This document shows, piece by piece, positions 85 to 22,318 of a DNA stretch of 28,840 nt. Position 1 is the stretch's first letter. Every line of letters starts with the position of its first letter. The translations under genes and the position numbers were made by a program. This DNA comes from a virus: the IMG/VR virus record IMGVR_UViG_3300009551_000105; one strand, given 5' to 3'. The notes beneath the pieces were generated by a model, which was not told where the DNA came from, did not search any database, and saw only the letters and a list, made by a program, of their open reading frames with translations.

Positions 85-513
85 ATGGAAAAAGTAGATT
101 TTAAATTTCACACCCAATCTAAACGCAATGATAAGCGTGGGAAAAATAATCTATTTTCAAAAAGGATCTATCAATTTTCAATTGATGGAAATTTAATTAA
201 TATATTTTATGGAACTGTTGAAGCTCAAGAAAAAACAGGAGTTCGTCGAGAATCTATCAGTCGTTGTTGTAACAATAAACTGAAAAGTTCAGGCGGATAT
301 TTGTGGTCATATAAAAATCTATGTCCTCCATTTCCTAGTAGAGAAGTACGTACAAGAAAAAATAAAATTATATTAATTGGTCCTAATCAAAATATTTACA
401 AAATAGGGAATTTAAAAAAGTTCTGCGAAGAACAAAAATTAAACTATAAGAGCTTTCATAAAGCTATTAATGGAAAAAACAAAGCCTACGGCATTTGGCA
501 AAGAAAGAAATAG
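85..513 (+). CDS. Standalone homing-endonuclease-like DNA-binding protein (Seg/I-TevI-type NUMOD-like HTH repeats, no catalytic domain); likely degenerate HEG remnant
   Basis: Two copies of the HEG C-terminal DNA-binding module: 'IYQFSIDGNLINIFYGTVEAQEKTGVRRESISRCCNNKLKSSGGYLWSY' and 'IYKIGNLKKFCEEQKLNYKSFHKAINGKNKAYGIW'. The same motif type occurs in the C-terminus of the GIY-YIG ORF at 10055-11035. No GIY-YIG or HNH motifs are present. ATG at 85 is preceded by GAAGAGA. Stop lies 3 nt before the sheath start. Confidence 0.6.
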   Translation: MEKVDFKFHTQSKRNDKRGKNNLFSKRIYQFSIDGNLINIFYGTVEAQEKTGVRRESISRCCNNKLKSSGGYLWSYKNLCPPFPSREVRTRKNKIILIGPNQNIYKIGNLKKFCEEQKLNYKSFHKAINGKNKAYGIWQRKK

Positions 514-516
514 AAA

Positions 517-3516
517 ATGGTCGATTTGAGATTTAAATCAGCAGGCGTTTCGGCAAGAGTAATAAACCTTACTGGACCAACAGCAATTCAACCAGTTGGA
601 ATTCCAGCAGGTGTTATTGGTACATCGGTAAAAGGTCCAGCATTCGTTCCGCAAACGGTTGCTACAACACAAGATTTTACTGCAATTTTCGGCGCCCCGG
701 CAGATGGTGCAGTGAATGGTCCATTGGCTATTAGTGAATGGCTTAAAAATAGACAATCTGCAACATTCTTTAAAGTTCTTGGTGCGGGTCAAGCAAAACA
801 AAGATTAACATCTGGAAACAATCAAGGAAAAGTAGCAAGCGCTGGCTTTGTTGTTGGTGATCAACAACCACAAGCTGGTGGTGCTCTTGGTAACAACACG
901 TATGCAAATGTAAGTCCAACTCTTGGAAGACTTTATTTTCTTAATACATTTATGTCTGAAGCAAATAGCTCTGGATTTTTAACAGATGCCGGACTTGCAA
1001 CAGCAGGCGTCCCAATTGTTAGAGGCGTTATTATGGCACCATCAGGCGTTGTAGTAACTCTTTCTTCCAGCGCAGTAACCTCTACGCCGCCAGCAGCAAA
1101 TGCAGTGGCTGGTGTTGGTACTGTTGGTTCAACTTTAGGAACCGTAAACATTGCTTCTGGTAGACAAGAATTCGTCTTGTTGCTCAATGGCCACAAAGGA
1201 ACAGATTCACAACATCCAAATGTAATAACTGCATCATTCGATCCAGATGCTCCAAATTATCTTGGAAATGCACTTAATACTGATCCGTTGAAACTTGAAC
1301 AAGCTGGACATTTGCTTTATGCGGACTATTCAGTTCACACTGCCTTGGCAGTTGTAACTGGTTGGGGTCTTTCAATAACAAGTTCATTAAGCACAACCAT
1401 TGCTGCTGGATTAGAGCCAACAGTATTCCTTACATCTGGTGCACTTGGCAGAAATACTGGTTCGACAACGGCTCCAAGTTATGAAAACTTTGAAGATCGC
1501 TACAGAACACCAAAATCAACTTGGATAGTATCGCAGAAATTTGGTGGATCACCAAAGAATTTGTTTAGAATCCATACACTTGATGATGGCGCATACGCTA
1601 ACAGCAAATTGAAATGGTCAATAGAAAACATTACACCATCTGTAAGTGATGTAAATCCATACGGAACGTTTGATATTCTCGTTCGTTCTTTTGATGATAA
1701 CGATAAAAAACGTGCAGTTATTGAAGCCTGGAGAGGTTTGAGCCTTAATCCAAGCTCTGACAAGTATATTGCTAGAGTTATAGGTGATACGCACACATAT
1801 TTCAATTTTGATGCTGCTGATGATTCGCAAAAAATCGTAAGCACTGGTGATTATCCAAATAATTCCATTGCAATAAGAGTTGAGATTGCAGATGCAGTAA
1901 GTTCTGGAGATATGGATCCAACTGCTCTTCCAATGGGTTTCCGTGGAGTCCCGCATTTGGTTACTTCCGGCTCCGCTCCTTTGGCAGCGTTGGGTGCATC
2001 GGTTGTATCTAGTTCATTCTCTACGACTGGCTCTGCGGATCCGGCATTCAAAGTTGTTCAAATGCCAATTCCATTTAGAACAAATCTTAATATCGGTGCA
2101 GTAACAAGTCAACGTGCAGATAAGAATTTGAATTGGGGTATTCAATTTGAACGTAAGATTAGTTCAACCGAATTGAATTCAACAACCCAACCTGAAAGAA
2201 GCATCCAGTTCTTTACAAAATACTTCCCTAACTTCCAAACAAGTTGGGCGAATGTAATAGTAAGTGCAAACGAAGGAACGCTTGATAGCACTGCAAATGG
2301 CATCTTGGATGCAGATAGATTCAACAATAATTTGTTCTCATTAGAGAATGTTAAAATTACACAAAACACAACAACTCTATTAGCTGATCTAACAACATTG
2401 GTTAGCTGGAGTTACGTTCGTGCGGGCAATATCGCAAATGCCGGAACTACAAGAGCATTGACCGTATCCGATCTTTCGGATGCGTCTGTACGTCAAGTAG
2501 CCAAGTTTAGCGGCATTGTACAAGGTGGTTTTGATGGTGTTCGTATATTCAACAATGACACGGCAACATTAACTAACTCGGCAATAGTCGAGGAAATGAA
2601 CAATGCTAACAGAGGAGTTTCTGATGGTCCAACTGTCAAAACTTATCAAAAGGCACTTGATATCATCACTGATGATACAGAAACTGATATTCAACTTTTG
2701 GCCATCCCGGGTATTAGACATAGCATCATAACCGACTCTGCTCTTCTAAAGACTGAAGACCGTTTTGATGCAATGTATTTGATGGATATCCAAGAATACG
2801 ACACAACGAATACTTTGGTTTCGTCTTCTGGACAAAACATCAGCGTTCGTTTCACAGCTAACCAACACAGTGATCGTGGAATTAATAGTTCTTTCGGTGC
2901 TGCATACTTCCCAGACGTAATAATCAATGATTCATTGAACAATACTGCTCGACAAGTACCACCGTCCGTTGCTGTCCTTGGCGCTTACGGATTGAATGAT
3001 GCCGTTGGATTCCCATGGTTTGCACCAGCAGGTTTTGCTCGTGGTGCTCTAAAGAGCACAGAACGCACGGTTCTTCCATTGAATCGTGATAATATGGATG
3101 CATTGCAAGATGTAAACATCAATCCACTTGTAAGCTTTGCAGGTTCCAGCGGTCCTGTTGTCTGGGGTCAGAAAACATTACTTGCAAGCGATTCAGCTCT
3201 AGAGCGTGTAAACGTTCGTAGATTGCTTATCTCATTGCGTCGTCAAGTTAGAGACGTGGCTAGAAGATTTATCTTTGAACCAGGCCGTGCAGAAACTCTT
3301 GCAAGATTCTCACAACTTGTAAACCCAATTCTTAAAAAGGTACAAGATCAGAAAGGTCTTGAAAAGTTCCTTGTAAGAATTGACACAACAACTACAACTC
3401 CTACGGATATCGAAAACAAAACAATTCGTGGTCAAATATTCTTGGTACCTACCAAGACCCTTGAATTCTTGTCTCTTGATTTCGTTGTCACAAACGGAAA
3501 TGTTAATATAACATAA
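517..3516 (+). CDS. Contractile tail sheath protein (T4 gp18-like)
   Basis: N-terminus 'VINLTGPTAIQPVGIPAGVIGTSVKGPAFVP..DFTAIFG' matches the sheath N-terminal signature. C-terminus 'INPLVSF..GPVVWGQKTL...RVNVRRLLISL...' matches T4 gp18 'INPV..GYVLYGDKT..RINVRRLFNML'. 999 aa; ATG with upstream GAAATAGAAAATG. Confidence 0.93.
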   Translation: MVDLRFKSAGVSARVINLTGPTAIQPVGIPAGVIGTSVKGPAFVPQTVATTQDFTAIFGAPADGAVNGPLAISEWLKNRQSATFFKVLGAGQAKQRLTSGNNQGKVASAGFVVGDQQPQAGGALGNNTYANVSPTLGRLYFLNTFMSEANSSGFLTDAGLATAGVPIVRGVIMAPSGVVVTLSSSAVTSTPPAANAVAGVGTVGSTLGTVNIASGRQEFVLLLNGHKGTDSQHPNVITASFDPDAPNYLGNALNTDPLKLEQAGHLLYADYSVHTALAVVTGWGLSITSSLSTTIAAGLEPTVFLTSGALGRNTGSTTAPSYENFEDRYRTPKSTWIVSQKFGGSPKNLFRIHTLDDGAYANSKLKWSIENITPSVSDVNPYGTFDILVRSFDDNDKKRAVIEAWRGLSLNPSSDKYIARVIGDTHTYFNFDAADDSQKIVSTGDYPNNSIAIRVEIADAVSSGDMDPTALPMGFRGVPHLVTSGSAPLAALGASVVSSSFSTTGSADPAFKVVQMPIPFRTNLNIGAVTSQRADKNLNWGIQFERKISSTELNSTTQPERSIQFFTKYFPNFQTSWANVIVSANEGTLDSTANGILDADRFNNNLFSLENVKITQNTTTLLADLTTLVSWSYVRAGNIANAGTTRALTVSDLSDASVRQVAKFSGIVQGGFDGVRIFNNDTATLTNSAIVEEMNNANRGVSDGPTVKTYQKALDIITDDTETDIQLLAIPGIRHSIITDSALLKTEDRFDAMYLMDIQEYDTTNTLVSSSGQNISVRFTANQHSDRGINSSFGAAYFPDVIINDSLNNTARQVPPSVAVLGAYGLNDAVGFPWFAPAGFARGALKSTERTVLPLNRDNMDALQDVNINPLVSFAGSSGPVVWGQKTLLASDSALERVNVRRLLISLRRQVRDVARRFIFEPGRAETLARFSQLVNPILKKVQDQKGLEKFLVRIDTTTTTPTDIENKTIRGQIFLVPTKTLEFLSLDFVVTNGNVNIT

Positions 3517-3540
3517 TTTATTAGCAGCTAAATAAAGATA

Positions 3541-3577
3541 AAACCGTCAACATTACAGTTCGACGGTTTTATTTTTG
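3541..3577 (+). terminator. Rho-independent terminator after sheath gene
   Basis: Hairpin aaaccgtc(aac)...(gtt)cgacggttt followed by tatttttg. Confidence 0.65.
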
Positions 3578-3626
3578 TTAAAAGTTAGCATATTTAGATT
3601 TTAGTAAAGGCTCAAGTTCATCCACA

Positions 3627-4427
3627 ATGACAAAATTGGACATTAAAGAATTACAAAAAATAATCCGTGAATCAATTTCTGAAGAAATCAAAAAAGAAGG
3701 TTGGGGCACTGTTCGCCGTAGTCGTGGCTGGGATCTTGACGACGATCATTATGAATCTGCTGAAGATTTTGCACCTGATGATGGTGACGTTAAAAAGGAT
3801 CGTGAAACTGGCGAACGTATGGTTTGGTCAGGCGATGAAGGTAAGTGGATTTACGAAGAAGATTGGCAACAAATGAATCTTGCCAAAAGAGCTAAAGAAG
3901 AAGCCGAAGAAGATTTAGATGAAACTGCTTCGATATCGTCTGTAGATGGAAAAAATACAACATTAATGCCAGAATCCCATAAGAGATTTTTGGGCGTAGT
4001 AAAAAATTCATTGAAAGTCAATGAACAAAAGAAAAAATCAGAGAAAAAGCCAATTAAAGAACATCGCAGCAAAAAGACAATGACTTTTGGTCAAATCCCG
4101 CCTGCTGAAGAATTGTTCAAATTAATGAATGGTGAAGAATTTCATTTAAACCTTCAAGGGGAAGGTTCGTTGGCTTTTGAGTATGCAGTTAGATTAAGTC
4201 AAGATCCTTTGGCTGGTTCTCTAGCTCCGGGAAAGGGTATGGAGTCCACATTGCAGGCTCTTGTAAACGCTCCAAGCCCTTCGGAAATACCAGATGAGGA
4301 ATACGAGACCGTACAAAAGATTTTAGACCACTGGTACTCACGTTACGGCGAAGACCATCCAATAGAAGAAGCTGCTTGGTCAATTGCGTCAGATATAATG
4401 GGAGTCTTGGGAATAGAGTGGATTTAA
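3627..4427 (+). CDS. Hypothetical protein with N-terminal amphipathic leader (MTKLDIKELQKIIRESISEEIKKEG); candidate prohead internal/packaged protein
   Basis: Intact 266-aa ORF with ATG start, in the head-gene neighbourhood. The leader resembles those of ORFs 4477, 18628 and 20039. No recognisable catalytic motifs. Confidence 0.5.
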   Translation: MTKLDIKELQKIIRESISEEIKKEGWGTVRRSRGWDLDDDHYESAEDFAPDDGDVKKDRETGERMVWSGDEGKWIYEEDWQQMNLAKRAKEEAEEDLDETASISSVDGKNTTLMPESHKRFLGVVKNSLKVNEQKKKSEKKPIKEHRSKKTMTFGQIPPAEELFKLMNGEEFHLNLQGEGSLAFEYAVRLSQDPLAGSLAPGKGMESTLQALVNAPSPSEIPDEEYETVQKILDHWYSRYGEDHPIEEAAWSIASDIMGVLGIEWI

Positions 4428-4476
4428 TCTGTCTCTACAATAGACAAAATAAAACAAAGCTAAAAGAATAAATAAA

Positions 4477-5043
4477 ATGAAACTAAACAGATTGCAACTA
4501 AAAAGTATTCTTAAAGAATGTGTCAAAGAATTAATAAACGAAGGCGCATTTAATGCTGTCATTAAAGAAAGCTTCAAAGGCCCTGTTGGAAATCAACAAA
4601 ACAATTCCGTGACAAATGAAGGAATATGGAATTCTAACGGAGTAAGACGACCGGCGGCAAATGATTTGCAATCGTTTAATAATAATGCTCCAAGTCAATA
4701 TCCACAACAACAACAACAGCAACAAAGTCAAACACCACAATACGATCATAATGTTGGACAAATGCATCCAAACGCTCGTTTGCAAGAGCTTGCACGAACA
4801 GTAGCACAGAATTCATCTGGCGGTAATCCAAAACACGCAAAAATGATGGAATCAATTTTTGCTGATACTGCTATGACAACATTGCAAAAACAACTTGGTG
4901 CAGGCGATGGCGGCGGCCAAGGAGTTTATGTTGGAGAAGAATATACACCAGAAGCAGAACACGCAGATGTGATGGAATTACAGGCATTAGGAGCAGCTTC
5001 TGGACATTGGGCCAATTTGGCATTCGGAAAATATAACAAATAA
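4477..5043 (+). CDS. Hypothetical protein with similar N-terminal leader (MKLNRLQLKSILKECVKELINEG) and poly-Gln tract
   Basis: 188-aa ORF. (CAA)n-encoded QQQQQQQ at about aa 77-84. Leader similarity to neighbouring ORFs. Confidence 0.5.
   Translation: MKLNRLQLKSILKECVKELINEGAFNAVIKESFKGPVGNQQNNSVTNEGIWNSNGVRRPAANDLQSFNNNAPSQYPQQQQQQQSQTPQYDHNVGQMHPNARLQELARTVAQNSSGGNPKHAKMMESIFADTAMTTLQKQLGAGDGGGQGVYVGEEYTPEAEHADVMELQALGAASGHWANLAFGKYNK
4705..4730 (+). repeat. (CAA)n/(CAG) trinucleotide microsatellite encoding poly-Q
   Basis: Seen directly: ccacaacaacaacaacagcaacaaag. Confidence 0.7.
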
Positions 5044-5128
5044 TAATATAAAATAGGGTTATAAGATAATACAAAAATTTGTGAATCTATATTTACATTA
5101 TATTTATATAACAAAGGTCTAATCCAAA

Positions 5129-5605
5129 ATGCCTAATCATCATCAGACAATAGTACAAGTTCCCCCAACTACGAGTGCCAATGGTTCAACAGATACAACT
5201 GCTTTAACTCTTGCATATCCTGGTTCTCCGATTTTTCACGGCGACCTTACAGATGAAACTGTCAAAAATTTATTTGAAGCAGTTACTCACGGTGATCAAT
5301 CAGATGGTGGACATACGTTTGGTAGTGTAAATATGGATTTCGCTGCCGCTCCAAATTTGGCAGAAGTTACAACTGGTGGTGGTGGATTGCCTGGCTCTCC
5401 ATATGCCCCAAACATTGCATCTCCGCCAGTTGGACAAAACCCAACTGATATTCCTGCATCTGGCGTCGAAGCAACAAATCGTGCAAGAGGTTCAGGTGGA
5501 GCGTTCGTAGGAAACGGTCTCGAATCACCAAGTGAAGGTTCCGCAAACGTTGGTCGACAACGTATTGGTTCATTAATGAATGGAACTTCGACTCCGAGAT
5601 CATAA
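5129..5605 (+). CDS. Hypothetical Gly/Pro/Ser/Thr-rich protein
   Basis: 158-aa ORF with ATG. Low-complexity composition. No similarity to T4 tail tube gp19 despite position and size. Confidence 0.4.
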   Translation: MPNHHQTIVQVPPTTSANGSTDTTALTLAYPGSPIFHGDLTDETVKNLFEAVTHGDQSDGGHTFGSVNMDFAAAPNLAEVTTGGGGLPGSPYAPNIASPPVGQNPTDIPASGVEATNRARGSGGAFVGNGLESPSEGSANVGRQRIGSLMNGTSTPRS

Positions 5606-5620
5606 TTAAGGAAATAGAAA

Positions 5621-7933
5621 ATGAGTGATCTTTATACAGAAGCACTGAAAAATGCTGAAAAATTACGTGAGATTGCGGAACAAGACGCAAAAAAGCGTAT
5701 AATTGAGGCACTTACTCCTTACATCAAAAAGGTTATTGCTAAAGAAGCTGCTGGTGAGGCAACTGATTTTTATTTTGAACAAGCAGAAGATCTTTCTCAA
5801 CTGCCTGATGAAGATGAAAATAATCCAGTAGCACCAGAAACAGCTACTCAAGGCGCTGCGCCTACTAGCGATCCAACGGCTATTGATCCTGCCACAACTG
5901 ATCCAACTCAAGATTTGAGCGCAGGACCACTTGGCGATCAATCAACAGAAGCTCCAATTGATGCAACTCCAGCACCTGTGACAGCAACGACTGGTCCAGA
6001 TGGAAAAATGAAAATTGGTTTTGATAATCTTACCGTAGATGCTACTTCTGATGAAGTAACAATTACTCCACACGCTGCACCTGCTGCTGAACCTGCTCCA
6101 ACTGCACCAGTTCAAGCCAAGGGCACAACACCAACAACAGGAACCGCTCCTGCACCAACTGCTGCTCCGGCACCAGTACCAGGCGCAGAACAAGCAGTTC
6201 CGCCAGAAGAAGAAGATGAAGATCTTCTAAAGCAACCAGTTGCTAATGAAGCAATTTCTTATTCTGACTATCAAAGAGTTTACAGCAATATTGCTGAAAA
6301 AATAGATCGTGCATTATTTACAGGAAATCTTTCAAATGTGGGTTCTGAAACCCTCAAACAAAGACTTTTTGGCCTTCTTGAAGCTGTAGATACGATGCGT
6401 GACCGTGGCGCCATTTCAAATAAATTAGCAAGAACACAAGAAAATAAACTAGAATTTTTGTTCTTAAAGCTGAAAGAGGCCAATGTGCATAATAGTTACT
6501 TCAAGAACAATAGTGAAAAAGGACCTGAAGACATGAAGACTCTTAAAGAATTTGCAGCACAGCTTTTCGAGGAAGATGAAAATCTTGCCAAAGATTCTGT
6601 TAGCACCGGCGAGACCGGCGTTAAAGTTGACAACGAAAAGACAGAACACGCACAGAAGGTTTCTGGCGTAAGTCCAAAACTTGGTAGCAAAAAAGATATC
6701 AAGGTTGCTGCTGAAGGTAAAGCATCAGAAGCAGATGCCATTTCTGGCTCTGTTGAAGATGATACCCAATGGGCAGATGGTGAACCTGTTGTTAAAGAAA
6801 ATAGCGCAAATGCTAACAAGGATGCAAATCCAGAAGTTAAAAAGGGCGCTGGCGGATTCGGCGATACGGATGAAGAACCAGTTGCAGAACCAATGACCGA
6901 AGAATTTGAAATTGACGAAGCAGAGCTTTCTGAAGCAGTTCGTTCGGTTCGTAAAGAAAGTCTCAAGCGTAAGCTTGCTGCTCTTCGTGAAGAAACGAAG
7001 AAAGACAAAAAGAGCCCGAAAGTTAAAGCTTCCGAGGATTACCCAAACCCAGGTCCAGAAGGCGGAGAAGATCCATCTCACGATCATCTAAAAGAAGGTC
7101 TTGAAGATATGATGGCTGGCGGAGACGCTGATGCAGATGCTGGCTTGGATGGCGCATCTGATGGCGCAGACGAAATGGGCGACATGGATTCAATTGCTGA
7201 CCTAGTTCTCTCAATCGATCTTCCACCAGAAGTCGAAGCAGAGCTTGCTAAGCTTGGTGTAGTTTCTGACGATCTTGATGTTGATGTAAAACTCAATGTC
7301 GGTGGCGAAGAACATGCAGATGCAGACGCAATGGGCGGCGACGATGAAATCGAAATTACCGATGATGGTGATGCAGATGACATTGGTGGTTCTGAAGAAA
7401 AAGACGAAATGCTTGCTGACGATGTTGACGAGTCTGCTGCAATGCCAATGGAAACAAAAATGGAAAATGCATCAGCTAAACACCTTGCACGCAAAGTTCA
7501 AATGCTTGAAAGCAAGCTAACACAAGCAAGCAAATTGCTTGAAGCAAAAGATGGTGAAATGAGTGAGTTGAAAGGCCAATTGTCTGAAACAAACTTGTTC
7601 ACTGCTAAAACAGTATACTACAGTAAGTTCCTTCAAAGAGCACTTACTGAAAAAGCTCTCTCCAAGAAAGTTCTACAACAAATTGTCGAGCACCTTGACA
7701 GAGCAAAGACGATTGCTGAATCGAAAGCAATCTTCACAAGCATCAAGCGCAAGCTTGATGAGCACGCATCTGCTTCCCTTAAATTGGGCGGTTCTTCCTC
7801 AAAGGTGGCCAAACCAGGAAGCGCAAGCCTTACTGAAAGCGTCTCAAGAGACGTCATTTCGGAAGGCATCGATCCTAACTCACAAACACCAATGCGCTGG
7901 CAAATACTTGCTGGTATCAAAAAAGGTGAATGA
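5621..7933 (+). CDS. Large highly acidic coiled-coil protein; putative prohead scaffold/core protein (gp22-like role)
   Basis: 770 aa, extremely D/E/A-rich, with helical N- and C-terminal segments (C-terminal 'LARKVQMLESKLTQASKLLEAKDGEMSELKGQL...'). It lies immediately upstream of the major capsid gene. Initiation region GAAATAGAAAATG is identical to the sheath gene's. The assignment is positional and compositional only. Confidence 0.45.
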   Translation: MSDLYTEALKNAEKLREIAEQDAKKRIIEALTPYIKKVIAKEAAGEATDFYFEQAEDLSQLPDEDENNPVAPETATQGAAPTSDPTAIDPATTDPTQDLSAGPLGDQSTEAPIDATPAPVTATTGPDGKMKIGFDNLTVDATSDEVTITPHAAPAAEPAPTAPVQAKGTTPTTGTAPAPTAAPAPVPGAEQAVPPEEEDEDLLKQPVANEAISYSDYQRVYSNIAEKIDRALFTGNLSNVGSETLKQRLFGLLEAVDTMRDRGAISNKLARTQENKLEFLFLKLKEANVHNSYFKNNSEKGPEDMKTLKEFAAQLFEEDENLAKDSVSTGETGVKVDNEKTEHAQKVSGVSPKLGSKKDIKVAAEGKASEADAISGSVEDDTQWADGEPVVKENSANANKDANPEVKKGAGGFGDTDEEPVAEPMTEEFEIDEAELSEAVRSVRKESLKRKLAALREETKKDKKSPKVKASEDYPNPGPEGGEDPSHDHLKEGLEDMMAGGDADADAGLDGASDGADEMGDMDSIADLVLSIDLPPEVEAELAKLGVVSDDLDVDVKLNVGGEEHADADAMGGDDEIEITDDGDADDIGGSEEKDEMLADDVDESAAMPMETKMENASAKHLARKVQMLESKLTQASKLLEAKDGEMSELKGQLSETNLFTAKTVYYSKFLQRALTEKALSKKVLQQIVEHLDRAKTIAESKAIFTSIKRKLDEHASASLKLGGSSSKVAKPGSASLTESVSRDVISEGIDPNSQTPMRWQILAGIKKGE

Positions 7934-7937
7934 AATT

Positions 7938-7996
7938 AGGAAAATAGCTTTAGATTGTTATATTTAGGAAAATAAGGAAGATTTTGAGGAAAATAA
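7938..7996 (+). promoter_or_regulatory. Three direct copies of AGGAAAATA (7938-7946, 7966-7974, 7988-7996) upstream of the major capsid gene; the third is the RBS
   Basis: Seen directly. Spacing 28 and 22 nt. Function unknown; candidate late-gene regulatory or ribosome-loading element. Confidence 0.3.
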
Positions 7997-7997
7997 A

Positions 7998-9920
7998 ATG
8001 AAGACATTTACACTTGCACAATTAGCAGAAGGTACGCACCGCCGTTCACTTGGCGCAGACGCACCACGTCTCGCTAAGAAATGGTCTGCAACTGGTCTTC
8101 TTGAAGGTCTTAAAGGCATGAACCGTGACAATATGTCTCGTCTTCTTGAGAACCAGGCTGCTGAGCTTCTCAAAGAAACGAATGCATTGTCCACTGGTGG
8201 CGCTGCCCTTACTTCAAGCGGTAAAATCGCAGGTTTTACTAACGTCGCATTCCCAATTGTGCGCCGTGTATTCGCAGGTTTAATTGCAAACGAAGTTGTA
8301 TCGGTTCAGCCAATGAGCCTTCCAACCGGATTGCTTTTCTATCTAGATTATACATACGGCTCATCCATTGGTGGCGATGCAGGTACAACTGCTAACCAAT
8401 TCGGAACAACGTCCGTAGTTAACCCATCAACCTACACCAGCCAAGACTCTGTGTACAACAACCCACGTGGTTCAGGTGTACGCTCAGGTTCTCTTGCAAC
8501 TGGCGGTCAATATGACTTGGTAGGTCATGGTTATTCAAAAGTTCACGTACAAAGCCGTTGGCTCTCTGGCTCCACTGACTCGGTCGGTGCATGGGTTTCA
8601 GGTTCCACATGGACGAGCGCAGCAACTGTAGCAGCTTCGGCTGACTTCACGGGCTTCAACGCACGTTATGCAATGTACGATTCAACTGTAGAAGTTGATC
8701 TTGGAAACAACGCACTTGATTACTGCTTCGCCTTCATCAGCGCATCAGAATTCTCGGGCAAGATCAATGGCGCAGACTTGAACAACATCAACCAAATCAG
8801 CTTGACTGGTTTCGGTGGTGTAACAAACTCCTCCATTGAATGGGGTGAGAAGTACCAAGGTGGTCGTGGCGTACTCAATCTCCGCAAGCTAACGCAACGT
8901 GGAAACTGGAACGCTACAGCAGGTCTCTTCACACCAGATCCACTTAACGGCTCACATCTTTTGTTTGTTGTACGTCTTGCTAACGCAGGTACGGCTCCAG
9001 CTCCAAACGGTGCAGTTGGTAACGCAGTAACAGCATCCGCAGCAATTGCAGACGCTCTCTCTGTAAACAGTGATGGTTCAACTCTTACGATCCCAAGCTT
9101 CGAATCTGACTTCGCCGTCGATTCCAGCCCACGTATCCCAGAAGTTGATATCCGTATCGAATCCACAAGCGTAACGGCTCAAACCCGTAAGCTACGTGCT
9201 CGTTGGTCACCAGAAATGGCTCAAGACCTTACGGCCTTCTACTCAATCGACGTAGAAGTTGAATTGACAAACATTCTCTCCGAGATGATCACGCTCGACA
9301 TCGACCGTGAAATCTTGAACGACTTGCTTACCCAAGCAGGTGCAGCAAACTTGTTCTGGTCACGTGCCCCTGGCAAGATCGTCAACAAGTTCACTGGAGC
9401 TGAAGCACTTCACACAAGCACGCTTGCACCAGGCCCAATGGCATTTGTAAACATCCAAGAATGGTATCAAACCCTTCTTGAGACGATTACGGACGTGGCT
9501 AACACCATTCACCGTAAGACGCTTCGTGGTTCAGGTAACTTCATTGTAACGTCACCAGACGTTTGCACAATCCTTGAGCATCTTGTAGCATACAAGCCAT
9601 CCTACCGTGTAGACGCAGATGGTCAAGTACGTGACAACATGGTCATCGGCGCAGAAGCAGTTGGTACGCTTAATAACCGTTACACCATCTACAAAGATCC
9701 ATACTTCCCAAGCAACAAGATCCTTGTTGGTTTGAAGGGTAACACCTTCCTTGAGAGTGGTTATATCTACGCTCCATACGTTCCTCTCATCTTGACTCCG
9801 GTCATCTATGCACAGGAAGACTTCACGCCACGTAAGGGTGTAATGACCCGCTACGGCAAGAAGATGGTTCGTAACGACTTCTACGGAACCGTTACAGTGT
9901 TGGATATGAGTACCATATAG
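7998..9920 (+). CDS. Major capsid protein, T4 gp23-like (HK97 fold with insertion domain)
   Basis: 'VRRVFAGLIANEVVSVQPMSLPTGLLFYLDY' matches T4 gp23 'VRRAIPNLIAFDICGVQPMNSPTGQVFAL'. 'ARWSPEMAQDLTAFYSIDVEVELTNILSEMITLDIDREILNDL' matches 'LKAAYSIELAQDLRAVHGMDADAELSGILATEIMLEINREVVDWI'. 'RGSGNFIVTSPDV' matches 'RGEGNFIIASRNV'. C-terminal 'YIYAPYVPLILTP...TRYG' matches gp23. N-terminal propeptide-like segment ends in 'ELLKE'. Confidence 0.95.
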   Translation: MKTFTLAQLAEGTHRRSLGADAPRLAKKWSATGLLEGLKGMNRDNMSRLLENQAAELLKETNALSTGGAALTSSGKIAGFTNVAFPIVRRVFAGLIANEVVSVQPMSLPTGLLFYLDYTYGSSIGGDAGTTANQFGTTSVVNPSTYTSQDSVYNNPRGSGVRSGSLATGGQYDLVGHGYSKVHVQSRWLSGSTDSVGAWVSGSTWTSAATVAASADFTGFNARYAMYDSTVEVDLGNNALDYCFAFISASEFSGKINGADLNNINQISLTGFGGVTNSSIEWGEKYQGGRGVLNLRKLTQRGNWNATAGLFTPDPLNGSHLLFVVRLANAGTAPAPNGAVGNAVTASAAIADALSVNSDGSTLTIPSFESDFAVDSSPRIPEVDIRIESTSVTAQTRKLRARWSPEMAQDLTAFYSIDVEVELTNILSEMITLDIDREILNDLLTQAGAANLFWSRAPGKIVNKFTGAEALHTSTLAPGPMAFVNIQEWYQTLLETITDVANTIHRKTLRGSGNFIVTSPDVCTILEHLVAYKPSYRVDADGQVRDNMVIGAEAVGTLNNRYTIYKDPYFPSNKILVGLKGNTFLESGYIYAPYVPLILTPVIYAQEDFTPRKGVMTRYGKKMVRNDFYGTVTVLDMSTI

Positions 9921-9935: not shown

Positions 9936-9955
9936 TGAAATAGTTTAGGAATGAA

Positions 9956-9984
9956 GGCCAGATGCAAATCTGGCCTTTTTCTTT
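9956..9984 (+). terminator. Rho-independent terminator after capsid gene
   Basis: ggccaga-tgcaaa-tctggcc followed by tttttcttt. Confidence 0.8.
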
Positions 9985-10054
9985 ATCTTTTTTGACTTCT
10001 ATGGAATATTTGATTAGGGTATACAAAAGTCTTCTTATGTTTTATTCTTTAGAG

Positions 10055-11035
10055 ATGAAAAACTTTTTTAATGGTCAATCAAAATGTGGTGGCGTGTATA
10101 GAATATTTTGCACAAAATCTTTTAGATCTTATATTGGTTCAACTGCTGTTTTTACAAACAGATTTTCACAACATAAAAAAGATTTATTTAATAATTTGCA
10201 TCATTGCAAATTTCTTCAAAGAGAATGGAATAAATTTGAACCAGAAGATTTTGTGTTTGAAATATTGGAGACAATAGAAATACAAAATCCGAAAGAAGCA
10301 AAGGAAAAAAGACTTCAAACAGAACAAAAATATATTGATGAGATATTACAAAAGTTCAATAGAGACCAACTCTACAATGGTTATACAAATGTAAGAGACA
10401 TTCCTTATCTTACGAGACACGATGACTATAAAGAAAAAATGAGAGTAAAAATGGTCGAATATTATTCCAAGCCAGAAAATAGAGAAAAATCAAAACAACA
10501 AGCGCTCAAGCAGTGGTCTGAACATTCAGCTAAAATAACAGTTACAAATAAAGATACAAAAGAAACGGTTTTGATAAATGGTTCCATTAGGGACTTCTGT
10601 TTAGCTCGTAATCTCTCATATAAATCATTCCATCTTATGGTCCAAGGAAAAGTAAAGGTCTCTGATGGCTGGTTCCTTGGCACGGAAGAGCCAAAGTATC
10701 ATAATCGTAGAGGTGAGAAGAGAGGTCCAATGTCCAAAGAACAGAAAGAGACAAGAGCGGACGTCTCAAGGGAAGGTATAGTTATAGAAAATTTTATAAC
10801 AAAGGAAACTATTGTGCTTGGTAAAAATATTAAGGATAGCTGCTCTCCAGGGAAGCTAGACTATAAGGCTTTGAGAAGATTGTTGCTTGATGAAACTTCG
10901 TTTACACAAAACGGATGGTTTAAGAAATCATTAGAGACCAAGGTTAGAAACGAGATTAAAGGTTTTTGTGGAAAGTGTAATCTAGTGTTTGGAAGTAGCT
11001 CAGGAATGAGAAACCATAGGAGAAGATGTGAATGA
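10055..11035 (+). CDS. Free-standing GIY-YIG homing endonuclease (T4 Seg / I-TevI-like) with C-terminal NUMOD-like DNA-binding repeats and a Cys/His zinc-finger-like tail
   Basis: 'GVYRIFCTKSFRSYIGSTAVFTNRFSQHKKDLFNNLHHCKFLQREWNKF..FVFEILE' carries the GIY..YIG, R, H, N and E motifs of the GIY-YIG domain. C-terminal 'LINGSIRDFCLARNLSYKSFHLMVQGKVKVSDGWF' and 'IVLGKNIKDSCSPGKLDYKALRRLL' are HEG DNA-binding modules. 'CGKC...H...C' at the end. The upstream in-frame start at 9962 overlaps the terminator, so ATG 10055 is chosen. Confidence 0.88.
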   Translation: MKNFFNGQSKCGGVYRIFCTKSFRSYIGSTAVFTNRFSQHKKDLFNNLHHCKFLQREWNKFEPEDFVFEILETIEIQNPKEAKEKRLQTEQKYIDEILQKFNRDQLYNGYTNVRDIPYLTRHDDYKEKMRVKMVEYYSKPENREKSKQQALKQWSEHSAKITVTNKDTKETVLINGSIRDFCLARNLSYKSFHLMVQGKVKVSDGWFLGTEEPKYHNRRGEKRGPMSKEQKETRADVSREGIVIENFITKETIVLGKNIKDSCSPGKLDYKALRRLLLDETSFTQNGWFKKSLETKVRNEIKGFCGKCNLVFGSSSGMRNHRRRCE

Positions 11036-11688
11036 AATATGATATTGTTAATATTTTGAAATCAGGGTATCATATTGACTTGAAACTAAAAACTTTTTCA
11101 AATAATAGAAAAATAACCCTTGAAAGACTTTGGTGTGAGCTTACTAAAAAATTTTATCACATAAATGATACAATAAGATTAATATCAATTGATAATCAAA
11201 ATTTAACTTTTGTATATATTGATAAAACATCACCTGCCGGAATTGTTTCTTATTCGTTTGATTTGCGTCAAGGAATAATAGACGAAAGAATTAATTTATT
11301 ATTAAACGAATTATATGATGTTATAGATATAGTTCATCCATCGTGGGGGCTCGCAAAAACATATAAAAGCAAATTTTTATTGTCAGAAGAAGAAATAGAA
11401 AAAAAACTAAAAACAATAGGACTTGAACCGCAAAATTTAATTGAACCAAAAATTGGTAATTTAGTTAAATTAAGATTTAACATCGATACAAATGAACCGT
11501 TAATTTATAACGGTTCATTTTCTGGACTTCTCCCGATTCAGGAAGAATGGGATGATATATTTCTAATTTCAGACATTGTCAATGATATATGTGACCTGTT
11601 AAGTCAAACAAATCAAAATAGAGAAAAACCATTGCAAAATCCATTAAAAAAATGTTCAATTGAATATTTGTACAAAATAAATCCATGA
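11032..11688 (+). CDS. Hypothetical protein (218 aa), translationally coupled (ATGA overlaps) to the HEG upstream and to paralog A downstream
   Basis: ORF with ATG start. AT-rich. No recognisable motifs. Confidence 0.45.
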   Translation: MKYDIVNILKSGYHIDLKLKTFSNNRKITLERLWCELTKKFYHINDTIRLISIDNQNLTFVYIDKTSPAGIVSYSFDLRQGIIDERINLLLNELYDVIDIVHPSWGLAKTYKSKFLLSEEEIEKKLKTIGLEPQNLIEPKIGNLVKLRFNIDTNEPLIYNGSFSGLLPIQEEWDDIFLISDIVNDICDLLSQTNQNREKPLQNPLKKCSIEYLYKINP

Positions 11689-12062
11689 TCATTAAACCCT
11701 GTTCCAAGTTTTACAAGGTTGCTGACAGCAGAGGAGATATTTTTGTCCTGCATCATAATAAAAATGAGGCAGTTTGCTCTTATGAACGCCAATATTATTC
11801 CAATTTTAACAAAGGGATAGCGTTAATTCAGACAAAAAGAAGCATTGACAAGATTAATGAAAAATATGGAAACGATACAGTATTTCCGGCACAAGCAATT
11901 TCTGGAATTATTTATGTTTTTGAATATGAAAAAGTGTCAGCTAACGAAGCAACCACTGATTTGTGGCATGAAGTTTGGCATTGCATTGTTGGGGATAAAA
12001 TTGGTTGGATGCATGTTCCCCATTGGATGAAAAGAGAATATTTTTCGGAATTATCAAAGTAA
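11685..12062 (+). CDS. Paralog family member A (divergent); C-terminal 'WHCIVGDKIGWMHVPHWMKRE'
   Basis: Shares the C-terminal W.VIVGDK.GW..VP.W.K motif with 6 other ORFs. Confidence 0.55.
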   Translation: MIIKPCSKFYKVADSRGDIFVLHHNKNEAVCSYERQYYSNFNKGIALIQTKRSIDKINEKYGNDTVFPAQAISGIIYVFEYEKVSANEATTDLWHEVWHCIVGDKIGWMHVPHWMKREYFSELSK

Positions 12063-12101
12063 GAATAAAAACACATATTTTTAATCAGAGCTTTAGAACA
12101 A

Positions 12102-12467
12102 ATGAATAACTTCTACAAAATACCAAAAAATATTTTGATTGATCACCTGCTTCTTTTTGAAACAATAGAAGATTGCGAAATTATGGGATCAGAAATTCGA
12201 AGTCAAAATAATAGAATTGGTTTAATTCTATCCTGGGAAACCGAAGGAAATAGTGAAACTCGGTATAACCTTGACGTTGTCAAACAAATTTTAAGTAAAA
12301 ATGCAATATTTTCTGTAAAATCTACGGATATAATTTTTCAAATCAAAAAAGTACATGATTGTGGAAATTTTTTTGACTATTGGCACGTTATTGCTGACGA
12401 TAAAGTTGGATGGATTGTTTTACCAACCTGGCTTAAATTAGAAAGAGTCAAGGAAAATGTTTTATAG
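12102..12467 (+). CDS. Paralog family member B; 'NFYKIPK...LLLFETIEDCE' and 'YWHVIADDKVGWIVLPTWLKLE'
   Basis: Family motifs at both termini. Confidence 0.6.
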   Translation: MNNFYKIPKNILIDHLLLFETIEDCEIMGSEIRSQNNRIGLILSWETEGNSETRYNLDVVKQILSKNAIFSVKSTDIIFQIKKVHDCGNFFDYWHVIADDKVGWIVLPTWLKLERVKENVL

Positions 12468-12515
12468 AACCAAATAGATTATTCTTTTATTCTTTTGAAG
12501 TATTATTTTTAATCT

Positions 12516-12845
12516 ATGACTAAATTTTTTAGATTCAAAAATATTACAGGGCTCAATATAACGCTTCATATCTTTGAAACAATAGAAAAGGCAAAAATGT
12601 GTACTAAAATACACTTAGCTATGAAAAATGCTAAAAGTCTACAGAAACAAAATGCCTGTGAAGAAGAATGCAAAAAACTATATGTAAATAATATGTTGCT
12701 GTCTTCGGACGAAAGTGATATATTTTTTCTTATTTCAAAGGAAAAAGGAAAAAATGCGGACGTAGAATATCTTCAAGTTATTGTCGGAGAAAAATTTGGG
12801 TGGATAATTGTACCATATTGGTTTAAAACAGAGGAAATAAATTAA
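12516..12845 (+). CDS. Paralog family member C; 'KFFRFKN...LHIFETIEKAK', 'DIFFLISKE', 'LQVIVGEKFGWIIVPYWFKTEEIN'
   Basis: Family motifs. Confidence 0.6.
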   Translation: MTKFFRFKNITGLNITLHIFETIEKAKMCTKIHLAMKNAKSLQKQNACEEECKKLYVNNMLLSSDESDIFFLISKEKGKNADVEYLQVIVGEKFGWIIVPYWFKTEEIN

Positions 12846-12846
12846 G

Positions 12847-13152
12847 ATGTTTTATAGAGCTACAAAATATCCATATATTTTCATTTATGAAACAAAAGCT
12901 ATTGCAACTTCAGCCAGTAAAGACCTGGGTCCACGTTTTGGTGATGAACATGATAATGTTTTAAAAATTGCAGAACGATGGTCTCAAAAGTTGGGTTCGA
13001 AAGTTCTTTATTCCAATCCTGGTGATATGATCTTTTGTGTTTCAAAAGATGGTTTTGATGAATATTCAGAGATATGGAATGTGATTATTAACGATAAAAT
13101 TGGATGGATTTTGCTTTCTGGTTGGTGCAAGATAGGATTGGTTCAGGTTTAA
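12847..13152 (+). CDS. Paralog family member D; 'MFYRATKYPYIFIYETKAIA', 'WNVIINDKIGWILLSGWCK'
   Basis: Family motifs; 1-nt spacing to neighbours. Confidence 0.6.
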   Translation: MFYRATKYPYIFIYETKAIATSASKDLGPRFGDEHDNVLKIAERWSQKLGSKVLYSNPGDMIFCVSKDGFDEYSEIWNVIINDKIGWILLSGWCKIGLVQV

Positions 13153-13153
13153 A

Positions 13154-13486
13154 ATGTTTTATAGAACCAAAAAAGAACTTTATGTATTTCTTTATGAAAC
13201 AAAAGAAGATGCATTACACGCACAAGAAAATTGGTCTCATGCAGTAGCGGCTCAAACAGTTGTCTATTCGGAAGCCTGGGTTATTGAGGCGGCAAAATAT
13301 TGGTCACAAAAATTAAAAAAGAGAGTAACGTATTCAAAACCAAATGATATATTTTTTCTTATATCAGAAGAAGATGCAAAGAACAACAATAATCAGGATC
13401 TTAAAATCATGAATTTTATTGTTGGGGACAAGTACGGTTGGGTAGCAGCTCCTTCTTGGTTGAAGATGGAGGAAATAAATGAGTAA
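13154..13486 (+). CDS. Paralog family member E; 'MFYRTKKELYVFLYETKEDA', 'DIFFLISEED', 'NFIVGDKYGWVAAPSWLKMEEINE'
   Basis: Family motifs. Confidence 0.6.
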   Translation: MFYRTKKELYVFLYETKEDALHAQENWSHAVAAQTVVYSEAWVIEAAKYWSQKLKKRVTYSKPNDIFFLISEEDAKNNNNQDLKIMNFIVGDKYGWVAAPSWLKMEEINE

Positions 13487-13784
13487 TTTATATCGTGCCC
13501 CAAAAGATACTCCAATGCTTTTACTTTATGAGACCGTTGAAATGGCACATAAGGTTGCGTTACCAAATGGTCCGACGGAAGATGAAACATATTTTTTATC
13601 AAAATTTTGGTCAATAGACACTAAAACCAAAGTTCTATGTTCCAATCCATCCGACATATTTTTTCTTCTTGACAAAGAAATAGATGGAAAATGTGAATAT
13701 TGGAATGTTTTGGTAGGAGAGAAAATCTGGTGGCTATGCGTTCCTTTATGGACTAAAATGGAACAAGTTATTATTACAAAATAG
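13479..13784 (+). CDS. Paralog family member F; 'SNLYRAPKDTPMLLLYETVEMA', 'DIFFLLDKE', 'WNVLVGEKIWWLCVPLWTKMEQV'
   Basis: Family motifs; 8-nt overlap with E. Confidence 0.6.
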   Translation: MSNLYRAPKDTPMLLLYETVEMAHKVALPNGPTEDETYFLSKFWSIDTKTKVLCSNPSDIFFLLDKEIDGKCEYWNVLVGEKIWWLCVPLWTKMEQVIITK

Positions 13785-18627: not shown

Positions 18628-19299
18628 ATGACAATGAAAATCAAGAAGAGTGAATTGCAAAAAATGATCCGTGAAGCGATTCTTAAAAACGTTAAGAAAT
18701 ATCTTACCGAACAAGCTGCAACCGGATTGAAGCAAAGAATTGCTGCAAAATCAACTACTGCTGCCAAAGATCAGGTAAGCATTGACAAATTGATGATGGC
18801 ATTGGATGGTATGGAAAAAGGCGGCAAAAAAGCCGTATCTTTTGATGAACTTGTTGCGGTTGCAAAAAAGTCAATTGAAGTTTCAGCACCGCTTGGAAAA
18901 GGTTCGGCACAAGGTCTTGCTCAAAGAGCAACATCAAAAACTGGTGGCGCACCTGTGGTAGCTCCTCCAGCAAATCTTAATCAACCTCGTCAAGAAAGCA
19001 AAAAAAATTCTGGAAAAAAGTTAAAAGAACAGAATGATGATATTGCTGCAAAATTAGATACGATGAGCAATTTACCTGAAGCAGAAGAAGATGAAAAGGC
19101 AATGAAAGAAGCTGTTGGTCATCTTGAATCGTGCATTGTAAAAGTTAGAGAAGTTGCACATATGGCTGACGAAGAAGAAAGAGACGAAGCATCGGCTTTA
19201 TTCGAAACAATTAATAATCTAAAAGCAGAACTTGAAGTTTTGAAGCATCTTGCAGAAGAGCTTAAAATGGAACAATCAAGTGATGAATGGTCTGAATAA
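18628..19299 (+). CDS. Hypothetical protein with N-terminal leader (MTMKIKKSELQKMIREAILKNVKKYLTEQ) and acidic C-terminal helix
   Basis: Leader similar to ORF 3627. Upstream AAGAACAAATCC is shared with ORF 19318. Confidence 0.5.
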   Translation: MTMKIKKSELQKMIREAILKNVKKYLTEQAATGLKQRIAAKSTTAAKDQVSIDKLMMALDGMEKGGKKAVSFDELVAVAKKSIEVSAPLGKGSAQGLAQRATSKTGGAPVVAPPANLNQPRQESKKNSGKKLKEQNDDIAAKLDTMSNLPEAEEDEKAMKEAVGHLESCIVKVREVAHMADEEERDEASALFETINNLKAELEVLKHLAEELKMEQSSDEWSE

Positions 19300-20038: not shown

Positions 20039-20872
20039 ATGTCCAAAAAAGCTCTTTTAGAGACAATTGAAATTCTTGTAAAAGAAGAAATAGAAAGTCT
20101 CTCTTTAAAAGAGAAGATTAGAAGTTCTACATTTAATTGGAAAGAGTTCAAGGCCCTGCCAGATATTTTTAAAATGAAAGAATATTTGGATGCAACCTTG
20201 GTTTCTTTAAGCGAAACACGTCAAAAAACCGGAAGAGAAGGATCGGCTAGAAAAGTATATCTTCTTTCAAGTGGTAAAGTAATAAAACTTGCTAAAAACA
20301 ATGCTGGCTTGGCTCAAAATGAAGCCGAGGCTTCGGCATCAAAAACACCGGATATAAAGCCGGCAATAGCTAAAGTATTTGATAGCGATCCAAAGTTTTT
20401 TTGGCTTGTTTCCGAATTGGTTAAACCATTAGAAAAAAGCAATATGTATCGAGTTGGACAATTTTTTGGTGGTGATATTTTTCCAACTACTGATTCATTT
20501 GAACAATTTGCTTGGTATGTTTGGGAAAACAAAGGCGATGTTGATAGGTCTTTGATAAAATTTGAACATCAACAAGCTCCTTGGCTATCAAAATATAATC
20601 CAAACATTGGAAAAGATATCAAAAATCCAAAAGTAATAGCAAAACTAAATGAATTTTTCAAATCATTACTCGAGTTTTGTCAAAAAACTGGTTCAAGATA
20701 TGAAGATATCGCTTCAATTTCTTCTTTTGGTATTTCGGCAGAGGGAAATCTTGTAGTTTTGGATTATGGCTTTACGAAAGAAGTTGGACAAAAATATTAT
20801 GATTGGAGAACCCAATCAGATATTGAAGCCGGTGCAAAACAAGGTTATAAAGCAAATCTCAATGCAAAGTAA
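20039..20872 (+). CDS. Atypical protein-kinase-like (RIO/Bud32/Kdo-like) protein with N-terminal leader
   Basis: 'GREGSARKVY' resembles a kinase Gly-loop (cf. RIO 'GKEANVY'). 'KVIKLAK' resembles the VAIK lysine motif. 'GKDIKNPKVI' resembles a catalytic loop (cf. DLKPENIL). 'VVLDYGFTKE' resembles a DFG motif. Confidence 0.45.
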   Translation: MSKKALLETIEILVKEEIESLSLKEKIRSSTFNWKEFKALPDIFKMKEYLDATLVSLSETRQKTGREGSARKVYLLSSGKVIKLAKNNAGLAQNEAEASASKTPDIKPAIAKVFDSDPKFFWLVSELVKPLEKSNMYRVGQFFGGDIFPTTDSFEQFAWYVWENKGDVDRSLIKFEHQQAPWLSKYNPNIGKDIKNPKVIAKLNEFFKSLLEFCQKTGSRYEDIASISSFGISAEGNLVVLDYGFTKEVGQKYYDWRTQSDIEAGAKQGYKANLNAK

Positions 20873-21224: not shown

Positions 21225-21290
21225 ATGAGACGTTTATAAATCCTCTATGGATAAATAGACATTTGCAAAATGTAAAAGCCTATAGAGCTT

Positions 21291-21830: not shown

Positions 21831-21855
21831 TGTCCATAAATATAGACCATTCCAA

Positions 21856-22263: not shown

Positions 22264-22318
22264 AACGTATAATACCAAATTGGTATAAATTAATAAACCA
22301 TTATGTAAAGTTCATAGG

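Follow-up and report, generated by a model that had tools for sequence, protein, structure and literature searches.

A prohead-core and capsid gene block in a probably relocated position downstream of the tail sheath gene of an uncultured huge T4-like phage

The window, that is, the whole stretch of viral DNA analysed here, is the entire 28,840-nucleotide contig IMGVR_UViG_3300009551_000105, and its positions 3627-9920 probably constitute the prohead-core and capsid gene block, in a relocated position, of an uncultured huge T4-like phage. An earlier note on this DNA had placed a tail sheath gene, three small open reading frames (ORFs), a 770-aa acidic protein and the capsid gene between positions 517 and 9920, and each was found exactly where the note had it (Table 1). 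The order 18-19-20-67-68-21-22-23 quoted there for Escherichia phage T4 (Straboviridae) agrees with NC_000866. In the window, no tube gene adjoins the sheath gene, and the gp20-type portal and gp21-type protease genes, which stand directly 5' of the scaffold and major capsid protein (MCP) genes in the rest of the lineage, are missing from that place.

The sheath and the MCP are both clearly identified. The former belongs to the gp18 family of contractile sheaths, since it matches PHROG 23 (2.3e-48) and a sheath hidden Markov model (HMM) built from the lineage detects T4 gp18 at 2e-103; its C-terminal 290 aa align to T4 gp18. The latter is a member of the gp23 family, with 29% identity to T4 gp23 over 275 aa. 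Residues 69-122 of the MCP align to residues 80-133 of T4 gp23, and residues 351-620 to residues 218-478. T4 gp23 is cleaved at residue 65, and a putative propeptide precedes the aligned part in the protein of the window. At the position of the T4 insertion domain, approximately 229 residues are present in comparison with approximately 85 in T4 gp23, making this part approximately 145 aa larger. The terminator which the earlier note had proposed after the sheath gene is real: the hairpin at 3531-3579 has a folding free energy of -22.6 kcal/mol (z -7.7), is followed by a T-run, and none of 200 shuffled sequences folded equally well. It contains a bulge and was hence overlooked by a simple stem scan.

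At least 598 relatives of the MCP and at least 55 of the sheath are present in IMG/VR. The closest deposited record to the MCP is LR756508.1, a 484-kb uncultured phage with 45-48% identity, on which nothing was found in the literature; identity to cultured T4-like phages and cyanophages is 29-34% over the conserved core. A relative contig, IMGVR_UViG_3300005974_000004 (L219 and L232), comprises 460,987 bp, and its p220 gene is split across both ends, indicating that it is closed circular (or terminally redundant) and therefore that these are huge phages. No contig longer than 28,840 bp with exact copies of the window's proteins was found, and a megablast search with the region found nothing among 50,697 phage genomes. 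The phage is thus a deeply diverged T4-like member of an uncultured group of huge phages.

Within this lineage, the usual order of the head genes is portal, p292 (a conserved 290-aa protein), protease, o188, o158, the o770 homologue and MCP, where o188, o158 and o770 are families named after ORFs of the window. In locus L005, for example, the portal (Pfam Portal_T4, 9e-63) and the protease (Peptidase_S77, 2e-26) lie 5' of the o188, o158 and o770 homologues and the MCP. The same order is repeated in nearly all of approximately 70 further protease-centred loci, including distant relatives with scaffolds of 310-370 aa. The tail genes are ordered as neck, p220, gp15-like, sheath A, sheath B, often one variable gene, tube, a gp48/54-like baseplate protein and tape measure, in which the tube matches PHROG 4542 (1e-27) and Pfam gp19 (3e-6) and the baseplate protein matches Pfam T4_baseplate (3e-18). 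The lineage at large therefore keeps both T4 adjacencies, sheath-tube and protease-scaffold-capsid, although, unlike in T4, its tail module lies downstream of the capsid gene. The earlier note had read the window as a deeply diverged T4-like lineage with rearranged morphogenetic modules. Divergence and rearrangement both hold; divergence as the cause of the order does not, since the T4-like adjacencies are kept across hundreds of relatives. Apart from this order, two short ORFs (266 and 217 aa) directly after the MCP at L005:12027-13513 match the C-terminal part of the MCP with 28-41% identity. Such ORFs, present in some relatives, might represent a split copy or else a vertex paralogue of gp24 type, and the window has nothing comparable.

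The genes that would be expected from the T4 order were searched for with HMMs built from the relatives' own tube, protease, portal and p292 genes. Against stop-to-stop six-frame translations of the whole window these gave no match (best E 0.04-1.9), while HMMs of the same make from a larger locus set detect T4 gp19 at 2e-35 and T4 gp21 at 2e-41, in addition to the detection of gp18 given above. The earlier note had proposed a search for homologues in the rest of the genome; within the contig, none is present in any frame. Tube, portal and protease are absent from the window, and would have to be encoded elsewhere in the genome, which probably measures several hundred kb. The families of the ORFs between sheath and capsid (o266, o188, o158 and o770) were also compared by hhalign with those of tube, protease and portal, and no probability exceeded 3.5%. 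It has to be considered whether o158 (5129-5605) or o266 (3627-4427) could be a highly diverged tube or prohead protease, in which case the order would really be T4-like. The resemblance is one of size only, with 158 aa in o158 against 163 aa in T4 gp19 and o266 being roughly protease-sized. Against it, the lineage tube and protease HMMs are blank on the window although models of the same make find T4 gp19 and gp21, hhalign gives the small ORFs a probability of 0.2% or less against tube and protease, and in relatives the true protease adjoins the o188 and o158 homologues while the true tube lies elsewhere. Moreover, the AlphaFold models show neither the tube beta-sandwich nor a gp21/herpesvirus-type protease fold, and Foldseek of the o158 model was blank. 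The tube or protease identity is therefore extremely improbable and is ruled out as far as sequence and predicted-fold methods reach. HMMs, hhalign, Pfam/PHROGs and predicted folds thus concur with the earlier note that no intervening ORF resembles gp19, gp20 or gp21, and the profile searches by which the note itself could have been overturned gave no support to divergent homologues at these two ORFs.

The order sheath A, sheath B, variable small genes, o188, o158, o770 and MCP is found only in the window and its nearest relatives (L003, L004, L083, L084, L085 and L101), which lie on six or more independent contigs from different samples. Within this subclade the sheath is 69-73% identical to that of the window on all six contigs, and the MCP is 85-89% identical where measured (L003, L004, L084 and L085). 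In L004 and in the circular 461-kb genome, the tube gene is located 6.6-7.9 kb 3' of the capsid gene, directly after a homologue of o121m (tube coordinates L313:14738-15229 and L004:19782-20273). It would appear that o188 to MCP, along with accessory genes amounting to 6-8 kb, occupy as one block the gap that separates sheath B from the tube. In other members this interval also varies, from less than 100 nt to more than 4 kb. With the block in this gap, the capsid genes follow the sheath, and the sheath-tube and protease-scaffold adjacencies are consequently both broken.

Two other explanations of this order concern the contig and the direction of change. As the source is a 28.8-kb metagenomic contig, with 40-49% GC over the structural genes and 29-34% in the part downstream of them, the juxtaposition of sheath and capsid might be the product of a chimeric assembly. 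This is very unlikely, because the subclade contigs come from different samples: the same junctions occur in at least six independent IMG/VR contigs with sheaths of 69-73% identity, including the circular 461-kb genome, and an identical 15.8-kb ENA contig also exists. The order of the window is probably derived, since T4, cyanophage S-SM1 (Kyanoviridae), LR756508.1 and distant relatives keep the protease 5' of scaffold and capsid. The sheath adjoins the tube in T4 and S-SM1, and lies approximately 33 kb downstream of the MCP in LR756508.1. Were the window order ancestral instead, the portal-protease-scaffold-MCP order of the other members would be secondary. Nothing speaks for this beyond the direction having been read from parsimony, and the protease is 5' of scaffold and MCP in T4, S-SM1, LR756508.1 and the distant relatives with small MCPs, most of them with the sheath beside the tube, whereas the window-type order is limited to the closest relatives (MCP at least 85% identical where measured, sheath 69-73%). 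An ancestral window order is accordingly very improbable, and a derived one is retained here.

Two tandem sheath paralogues of approximately 1000 aa, A followed by B and 32% identical to each other, are present in every member of the lineage examined, for instance at L084:6885-9944 and L084:10001-13030, with all loci from L083 to L137 having been surveyed; LR756508.1 also yields two sheath matches. The sheath of the window is paralogue B, and paralogue A would be located just upstream of the contig start, where the terminator-like hairpin is presumably the terminator of this off-contig gene. The gap between A and B is approximately 50-130 nt in L083-L085 and L004, and the NUMOD1/HNH-like ORF at 85-513 has apparently been inserted between the two. 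The only precedent found for two sheath paralogues is the unrelated PaBG/Lu11 group of jumbo phages, whose two sheath paralogues, 38% identical, arose from duplication and are both present in the virion (PMC7412058). Homing endonucleases flank both major structural genes of the window, the NUMOD1/HNH-like ORF 5' of the sheath and a GIY-YIG gene 3' of the capsid. A GIY-YIG gene directly follows the MCP in many relatives, and segD follows gene 23 in T4. The true start of the window's GIY-YIG gene is probably near 10055, because the annotated start overlaps the capsid terminator hairpin.

None of o266, o188, o158 and o770 has a Pfam or PHROGs match, and o770 and o158 gave no match against 50,697 phage records. 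The protein encoded by o770 has an isoelectric point (pI) of 4.47 and a net charge of -71, and in 77 loci the family is always directly 5' of the MCP. The tripeptide [LI]xE is the cleavage specificity of T4 gp21, and o770 has 20 such sites compared with 9.8±2.7 in shuffled sequences; the corresponding values are 16 against 5.7±2.0 for T4 gp22 and 13 against 5.2±1.9 for S-SM1 gp22. Furthermore, the o770 HMM detects the 310-370-aa proteins at the scaffold position in distant relatives. In its place 5' of the MCP, its high acidity and its many [LI]xE sites, o770 has what characterises a gp22-type protein, and a gp22-type scaffold is its likely identity, from position and composition and not from homology. 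Alternatively, o770 may be a large acidic internal or ejection protein or a component of an inner body, with another protein doing the scaffolding. Its length, approximately 2-3 times that of known gp22 (269-339 aa), its long Ala/Pro/Thr-rich low-complexity segment and the lack of gp22 sequence similarity would fit such a role. This alternative is nevertheless unlikely, since the family is invariably adjacent to the MCP, the HMM ties it to the shorter proteins that smaller relatives have at the gp22 position, it resembles gp22 in charge and in [LI]xE enrichment, and no other scaffold candidate exists in the block. The scaffold assignment is therefore preferred.

Upstream of this scaffold candidate, o158 has relatives in 57 loci, and 157 clusters of its family are present in a global protein set, none of them named. 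The protein is rich in Gly, Pro and Ser, with conserved motifs FPGSP, NDGGHTFG and GGGGLPGSPYAPNIASP, and lacks the N-terminal motif described below. Its AlphaFold model from a 57-sequence alignment (predicted local distance difference test, pLDDT, 67; predicted template-modelling score, pTM, 0.35) is mostly coil with short helices, and Foldseek found no match to it in the PDB. From its position, a prohead-core or inner-capsid role might be guessed. The family of o188 was found in 54 related loci, always 5' of o158, scaffold and MCP; outside the subclade it lies 3' of the protease gene, either directly or after one or two small ORFs. The acidic o266 (pI 4.79) is specific to the subclade, with only 4 protein clusters among 5.8 billion sequences. 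Its model (pLDDT 58) contains a helix at residues 6-24, disorder at 96-156 and a helical C-terminal domain. A kinship between o266 and p292 was suggested by a weak tblastn match (15 aa, E 0.059) and rejected, as hhalign (2%) did not confirm it.

A short N-terminal sequence links o266 and o188 with a third protein, o223, which is encoded 8.7 kb downstream of the capsid gene and whose body has no homologue in related loci. The motif is approximately 23 aa in length, reads roughly MK[LIV]xKxQLKxxIKExxxxxLxE and is nearly alike in the three proteins; its HMM matches o266 at residues 1-24 (6e-6), where a helix is predicted, and also o188 (3e-10) and o223 (1e-8). When 308 loci with 10,000 ORFs were scanned, the HMM gave 120 matches, 75 in the o188 family and 45 on other proteins. 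The motif is at the ORF N-terminus in 103 of the 120, where random placement would give 5%, and an [LI]xE site is present within 30 aa in all 120 compared with 39% in the background, the residue after the last such site being Gly in 62. The bodies behind the motif are mutually unrelated (hhalign below 1%). The genes carrying it are concentrated in two places, directly 3' of sheath B and in the protease-scaffold interval, with up to four in tandem (L004). A short sequence shared at the N-terminus by otherwise unrelated proteins is the hallmark of the capsid-targeting sequence (CTS) of T4. The T4 internal proteins are diverse and share only the CTS, which attaches to the scaffold core and is cleaved off by gp21 (PMC3012670, PMC7411985, PMC5694885).

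By analogy with T4, the motif helix, amphipathic and ending in [LI]-x-E, would dock o266, o188 and o223 onto the scaffold core. A gp21-type protease encoded elsewhere would then cut off the helix, break down o770 and process the capsid propeptide near LKE60. It is thus inferred that o266 and o188 may be targeted to the prohead core and trimmed, and o266 is a candidate packaged internal head protein of cargo type. The intervening ORFs are best read as prohead-core proteins, and the suggestion of the earlier note that they are head-core or scaffold-type proteins, and not tube, portal or protease, is borne out by their positions, charge and motif, with their role probable rather than observed. 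A bolder proposal, put forward here only tentatively, is that the 23-aa helix is a lineage-wide capsid-targeting tag and that the sheath B-tube and protease-scaffold gaps are hot spots for tag-bearing cargo genes with fast turnover, possibly encoding ejected anti-defence proteins (o266 and o223); recombination between the tag-coding gene starts of the two hot spots could then have moved the whole capsid block into the sheath-tube gap. Conversely, the motif might not be a targeting or cleavage signal at all, but a remnant of serial gene duplication in which the bodies diverged fast, or an oligomerisation or regulatory element, with the small proteins not packaged. The frequent tandem arrangement is what duplication would yield, the sequence has no likeness to the T4 CTS, and packaging of the carriers is proposed by analogy. 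Strict N-terminal placement, the constant [LI]xE site with its frequent following Gly, the proximity of the carriers to protease, scaffold and sheath genes, the lack of residual similarity between their bodies and the [LI]xE enrichment of the capsid protein and scaffold candidate make this explanation rather unlikely, and targeting to the prohead core remains the favoured function.

Several observations weigh against the interpretation of 3627-9920 as a relocated prohead-core and capsid block. The window's own syntenic site (20859-22278), which follows o121m, has no tube but two genes on the minus strand, of which o140m is inverted in comparison with the relatives, implying a further local rearrangement in the window. 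A walk of 10 kb upstream from the neck gene, in the 206-kb contig UViG_3300025364_000003 and in the 461-kb contig, met neither portal nor protease, so that a portal-p292-protease group abutting the neck module of the subclade is rejected within 6.6 kb. The subclade portal was not located in a scan using peptide patterns, and no subclade protease was among the matches listed in a protease-alignment scan; with both unlocated in the subclade genomes, a move of a single block with the rest left in place is a tentative model. Regarding the proteins, the AlphaFold models are of low confidence (pLDDT 58-67). Comparison of o770, o188 and o158 with gp22, gp67 and gp68 of T4 and S-SM1 gave hhalign probabilities below 1%, as also for o770 against gp22 in particular, and HMM E values of 0.0026 or more in a 16-sequence database; nor did profile comparison of these three and p292 with gp22, gp67, gp68 and SSM1_130 give anything significant. 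The CTS of T4 reads MKTYQEFIAE, and the motif is unlike it by eye, ten residues being too few for a meaningful test.

Table 1. Features of the window (positions of the whole stretch)
Feature	Position	Strand	Basis or remark
Terminator-like hairpin	1-21 (1-31 including T-run)	+	8-bp stem, T-run
NUMOD1/HNH-type homing-endonuclease-like ORF	85-513	+	Pfam NUMOD1 1.5e-5; PHROG HNH endonuclease 1e-7
Tail sheath, paralogue B, 999 aa	517-3516	+	PHROG 23, 2.3e-48
Intrinsic-terminator-like hairpin 3' of sheath gene	3531-3579	+	folding, shuffles
o266, 266 aa, acidic accessory protein	3627-4427	+	ORF list
CTS-like N-terminal motif of o266	3627-3698	+	MTKLDIKELQKIIRESISEEIKKE
o188, 188 aa, conserved prohead-core-type protein	4477-5043	+	conservation, N-terminal motif
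CTS-like motif of o188	4477-4545	+	MKLNRLQLKSILKECVKELINE then G; ends I-N-E before G
o158, 158 aa, conserved Gly/Pro/Ser-rich head-module protein	5129-5605	+	conservation
o770, 770 aa, giant acidic protein	5621-7933	+	probable gp22-type scaffold
gp23-family MCP, 640 aa	7998-9920	+	Pfam Gp23 5.4e-79
Putative MCP propeptide	7998-8177, aa 1-60	+	...LLKE before T; just 5' of the stretch aligning with T4 gp23
Enlarged MCP insertion	8364-9047, aa 123-350	+	alignment to T4 gp23
Strong terminator-like hairpin 3' of capsid gene	9953-9978	+	11-bp stem, T-rich tail
GIY-YIG homing endonuclease	9962-11035	+	Pfam GIY-YIG 4e-7; PHROG 314 2e-14
o223, CTS-like motif carrier	18628-19299	+	motif HMM
CTS-like motif of o223	18634-18711	+	CTS HMM 1e-8
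Site of the tube gene in close relatives	20859-22278	-	holds o121m, o195m, o140m; no tube

Other parts of the window were also inspected. At 22837-25515 (+ strand), a full-length homologue of the eukaryotic major vault protein (MVP) is encoded, with 892 aa and matches to Pfam MVP_shoulder (3.9e-26) and Vault_3 (4.7e-7). Against the PDB, its residues 510-802 align with residues 467-772 of MVP (E 1e-16), and in total length it corresponds to MVP. No such homologue was found in the related loci L003-L082, so that it would seem to be an accessory gene peculiar to this phage. The capsid gene has a GC content of 47-49%, which drops sharply to 29-33% over the succession of small ORFs at 11032-13784, several of which seem to be mutual paralogues with N-termini of the type MFYR..K..Y.F.YET. 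Further downstream, o412 (26071-27309, + strand) matches PHROG 1645, 'virion structural protein' (7.8e-63), and o277 (20039-20872, + strand) matches PHROG 4301 (1.6e-18). In the tail module of the relatives, a homologue of o277 stands between p220 and the gp15-like gene, with up to three copies in L084.

No tRNAs were found in the window. The T4-type late promoter TATAAATA has 2 matches against 1.6 expected, neither of them standing correctly oriented 5' of a structural gene. TAnnTTTG, the -7 motif of Bacteroidota, is at chance level too, so that neither motif gives a promoter or host clue. A-rich stretches (AAAATAAAATG) precede the start codons of the structural genes, for example at 4465-4479, 5610-5623 and 7985-8000, with no clear Shine-Dalgarno sequence. 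From such start contexts a host without Shine-Dalgarno usage, for instance one of the Bacteroidota, might be suspected, but the Bacteroidota motif is, as stated, not enriched.

In comparison with known systems, the region would by analogy resemble the gene 21-23 head module of T4 with its CTS-bearing internal proteins. The likeness to T4 extends over the homologous sheath and MCP, in the relatives also tube, portal and protease, and furthermore over the acidic [LI]xE-rich protein directly 5' of the MCP, the N-terminal propeptide region of the MCP and the GIY-YIG endonuclease after the capsid gene. The differences are considerable. In the window, the sheath is not followed by tube and portal, and the protease is not 5' of the scaffold; the lineage has two tandem sheaths of approximately 1000 aa and T4 a single one of 659 aa; the scaffold candidate has 770 aa against 269, and the MCP has 640 aa with the larger insertion. 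The T4 late promoter is also not enriched, and the head-core proteins share no sequence similarity with gp67, gp68 or gp22. The T4 internal proteins IPI, IPII, IPIII and Alt with their CTS likewise place a short N-terminal sequence with a gp21-type [LI]xE end on unrelated variable proteins whose genes lie in or near the head module (PMC3012670, PMC7411985). The motif of the present lineage differs in its length of approximately 23 aa against approximately 10 and in its unrelated sequence. Its carrier genes, whose products may be packaged and cleaved, cluster in the sheath-tube and protease-scaffold gaps.

Among the individual genomes, the 461-kb contig UViG_3300005974_000004 has the gene order of the window from sheath A to MCP, with 88% identity in the MCP and 71% in the sheath; unlike the window, it still has a tube gene, 6.6 kb 3' of the MCP. 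LR756508.1 likewise gives two sheath matches and is the nearest deposited MCP, but tblastn detected no o158 or o770 homologues in it, and its sheath is distant from its MCP. S-SM1 is among the best cultured MCP matches (approximately 32%), and its gp22 has the same charge and [LI]xE bias as o770; it differs in that its gp17-gp23 cluster follows the T4 order throughout, in having one sheath only and a scaffold of 339 aa, and in lacking all of the small-protein families. The Pseudomonas phage PaBG/Lu11 group shares the possession of two diverged sheath paralogues (PMC7412058), but has an HK97-type capsid and non-adjacent sheath genes, and is unrelated, the sole match, of 29%, covering the C-terminal region of the sheath.

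Reshuffled gene order among distant T4-like phages is unsurprising in itself, and the order alone would be a moderate curiosity only. What is new here is that the break is mapped precisely to two variable gaps in one lineage, together with a candidate lineage-specific capsid-targeting tag. Within one lineage, the conserved late-gene order of T4 can be disrupted while the genes concerned are kept. Furthermore, a working annotation is now available for four protein families of this large and uncultured huge-phage group that had no name before. If the motif is indeed a capsid-targeting signal, the genes bearing it could be listed by sequence, which would provide a catalogue of candidate packaged or ejected proteins in phages that have not yet been grown, and the motif itself might serve as a protein-loading tag.

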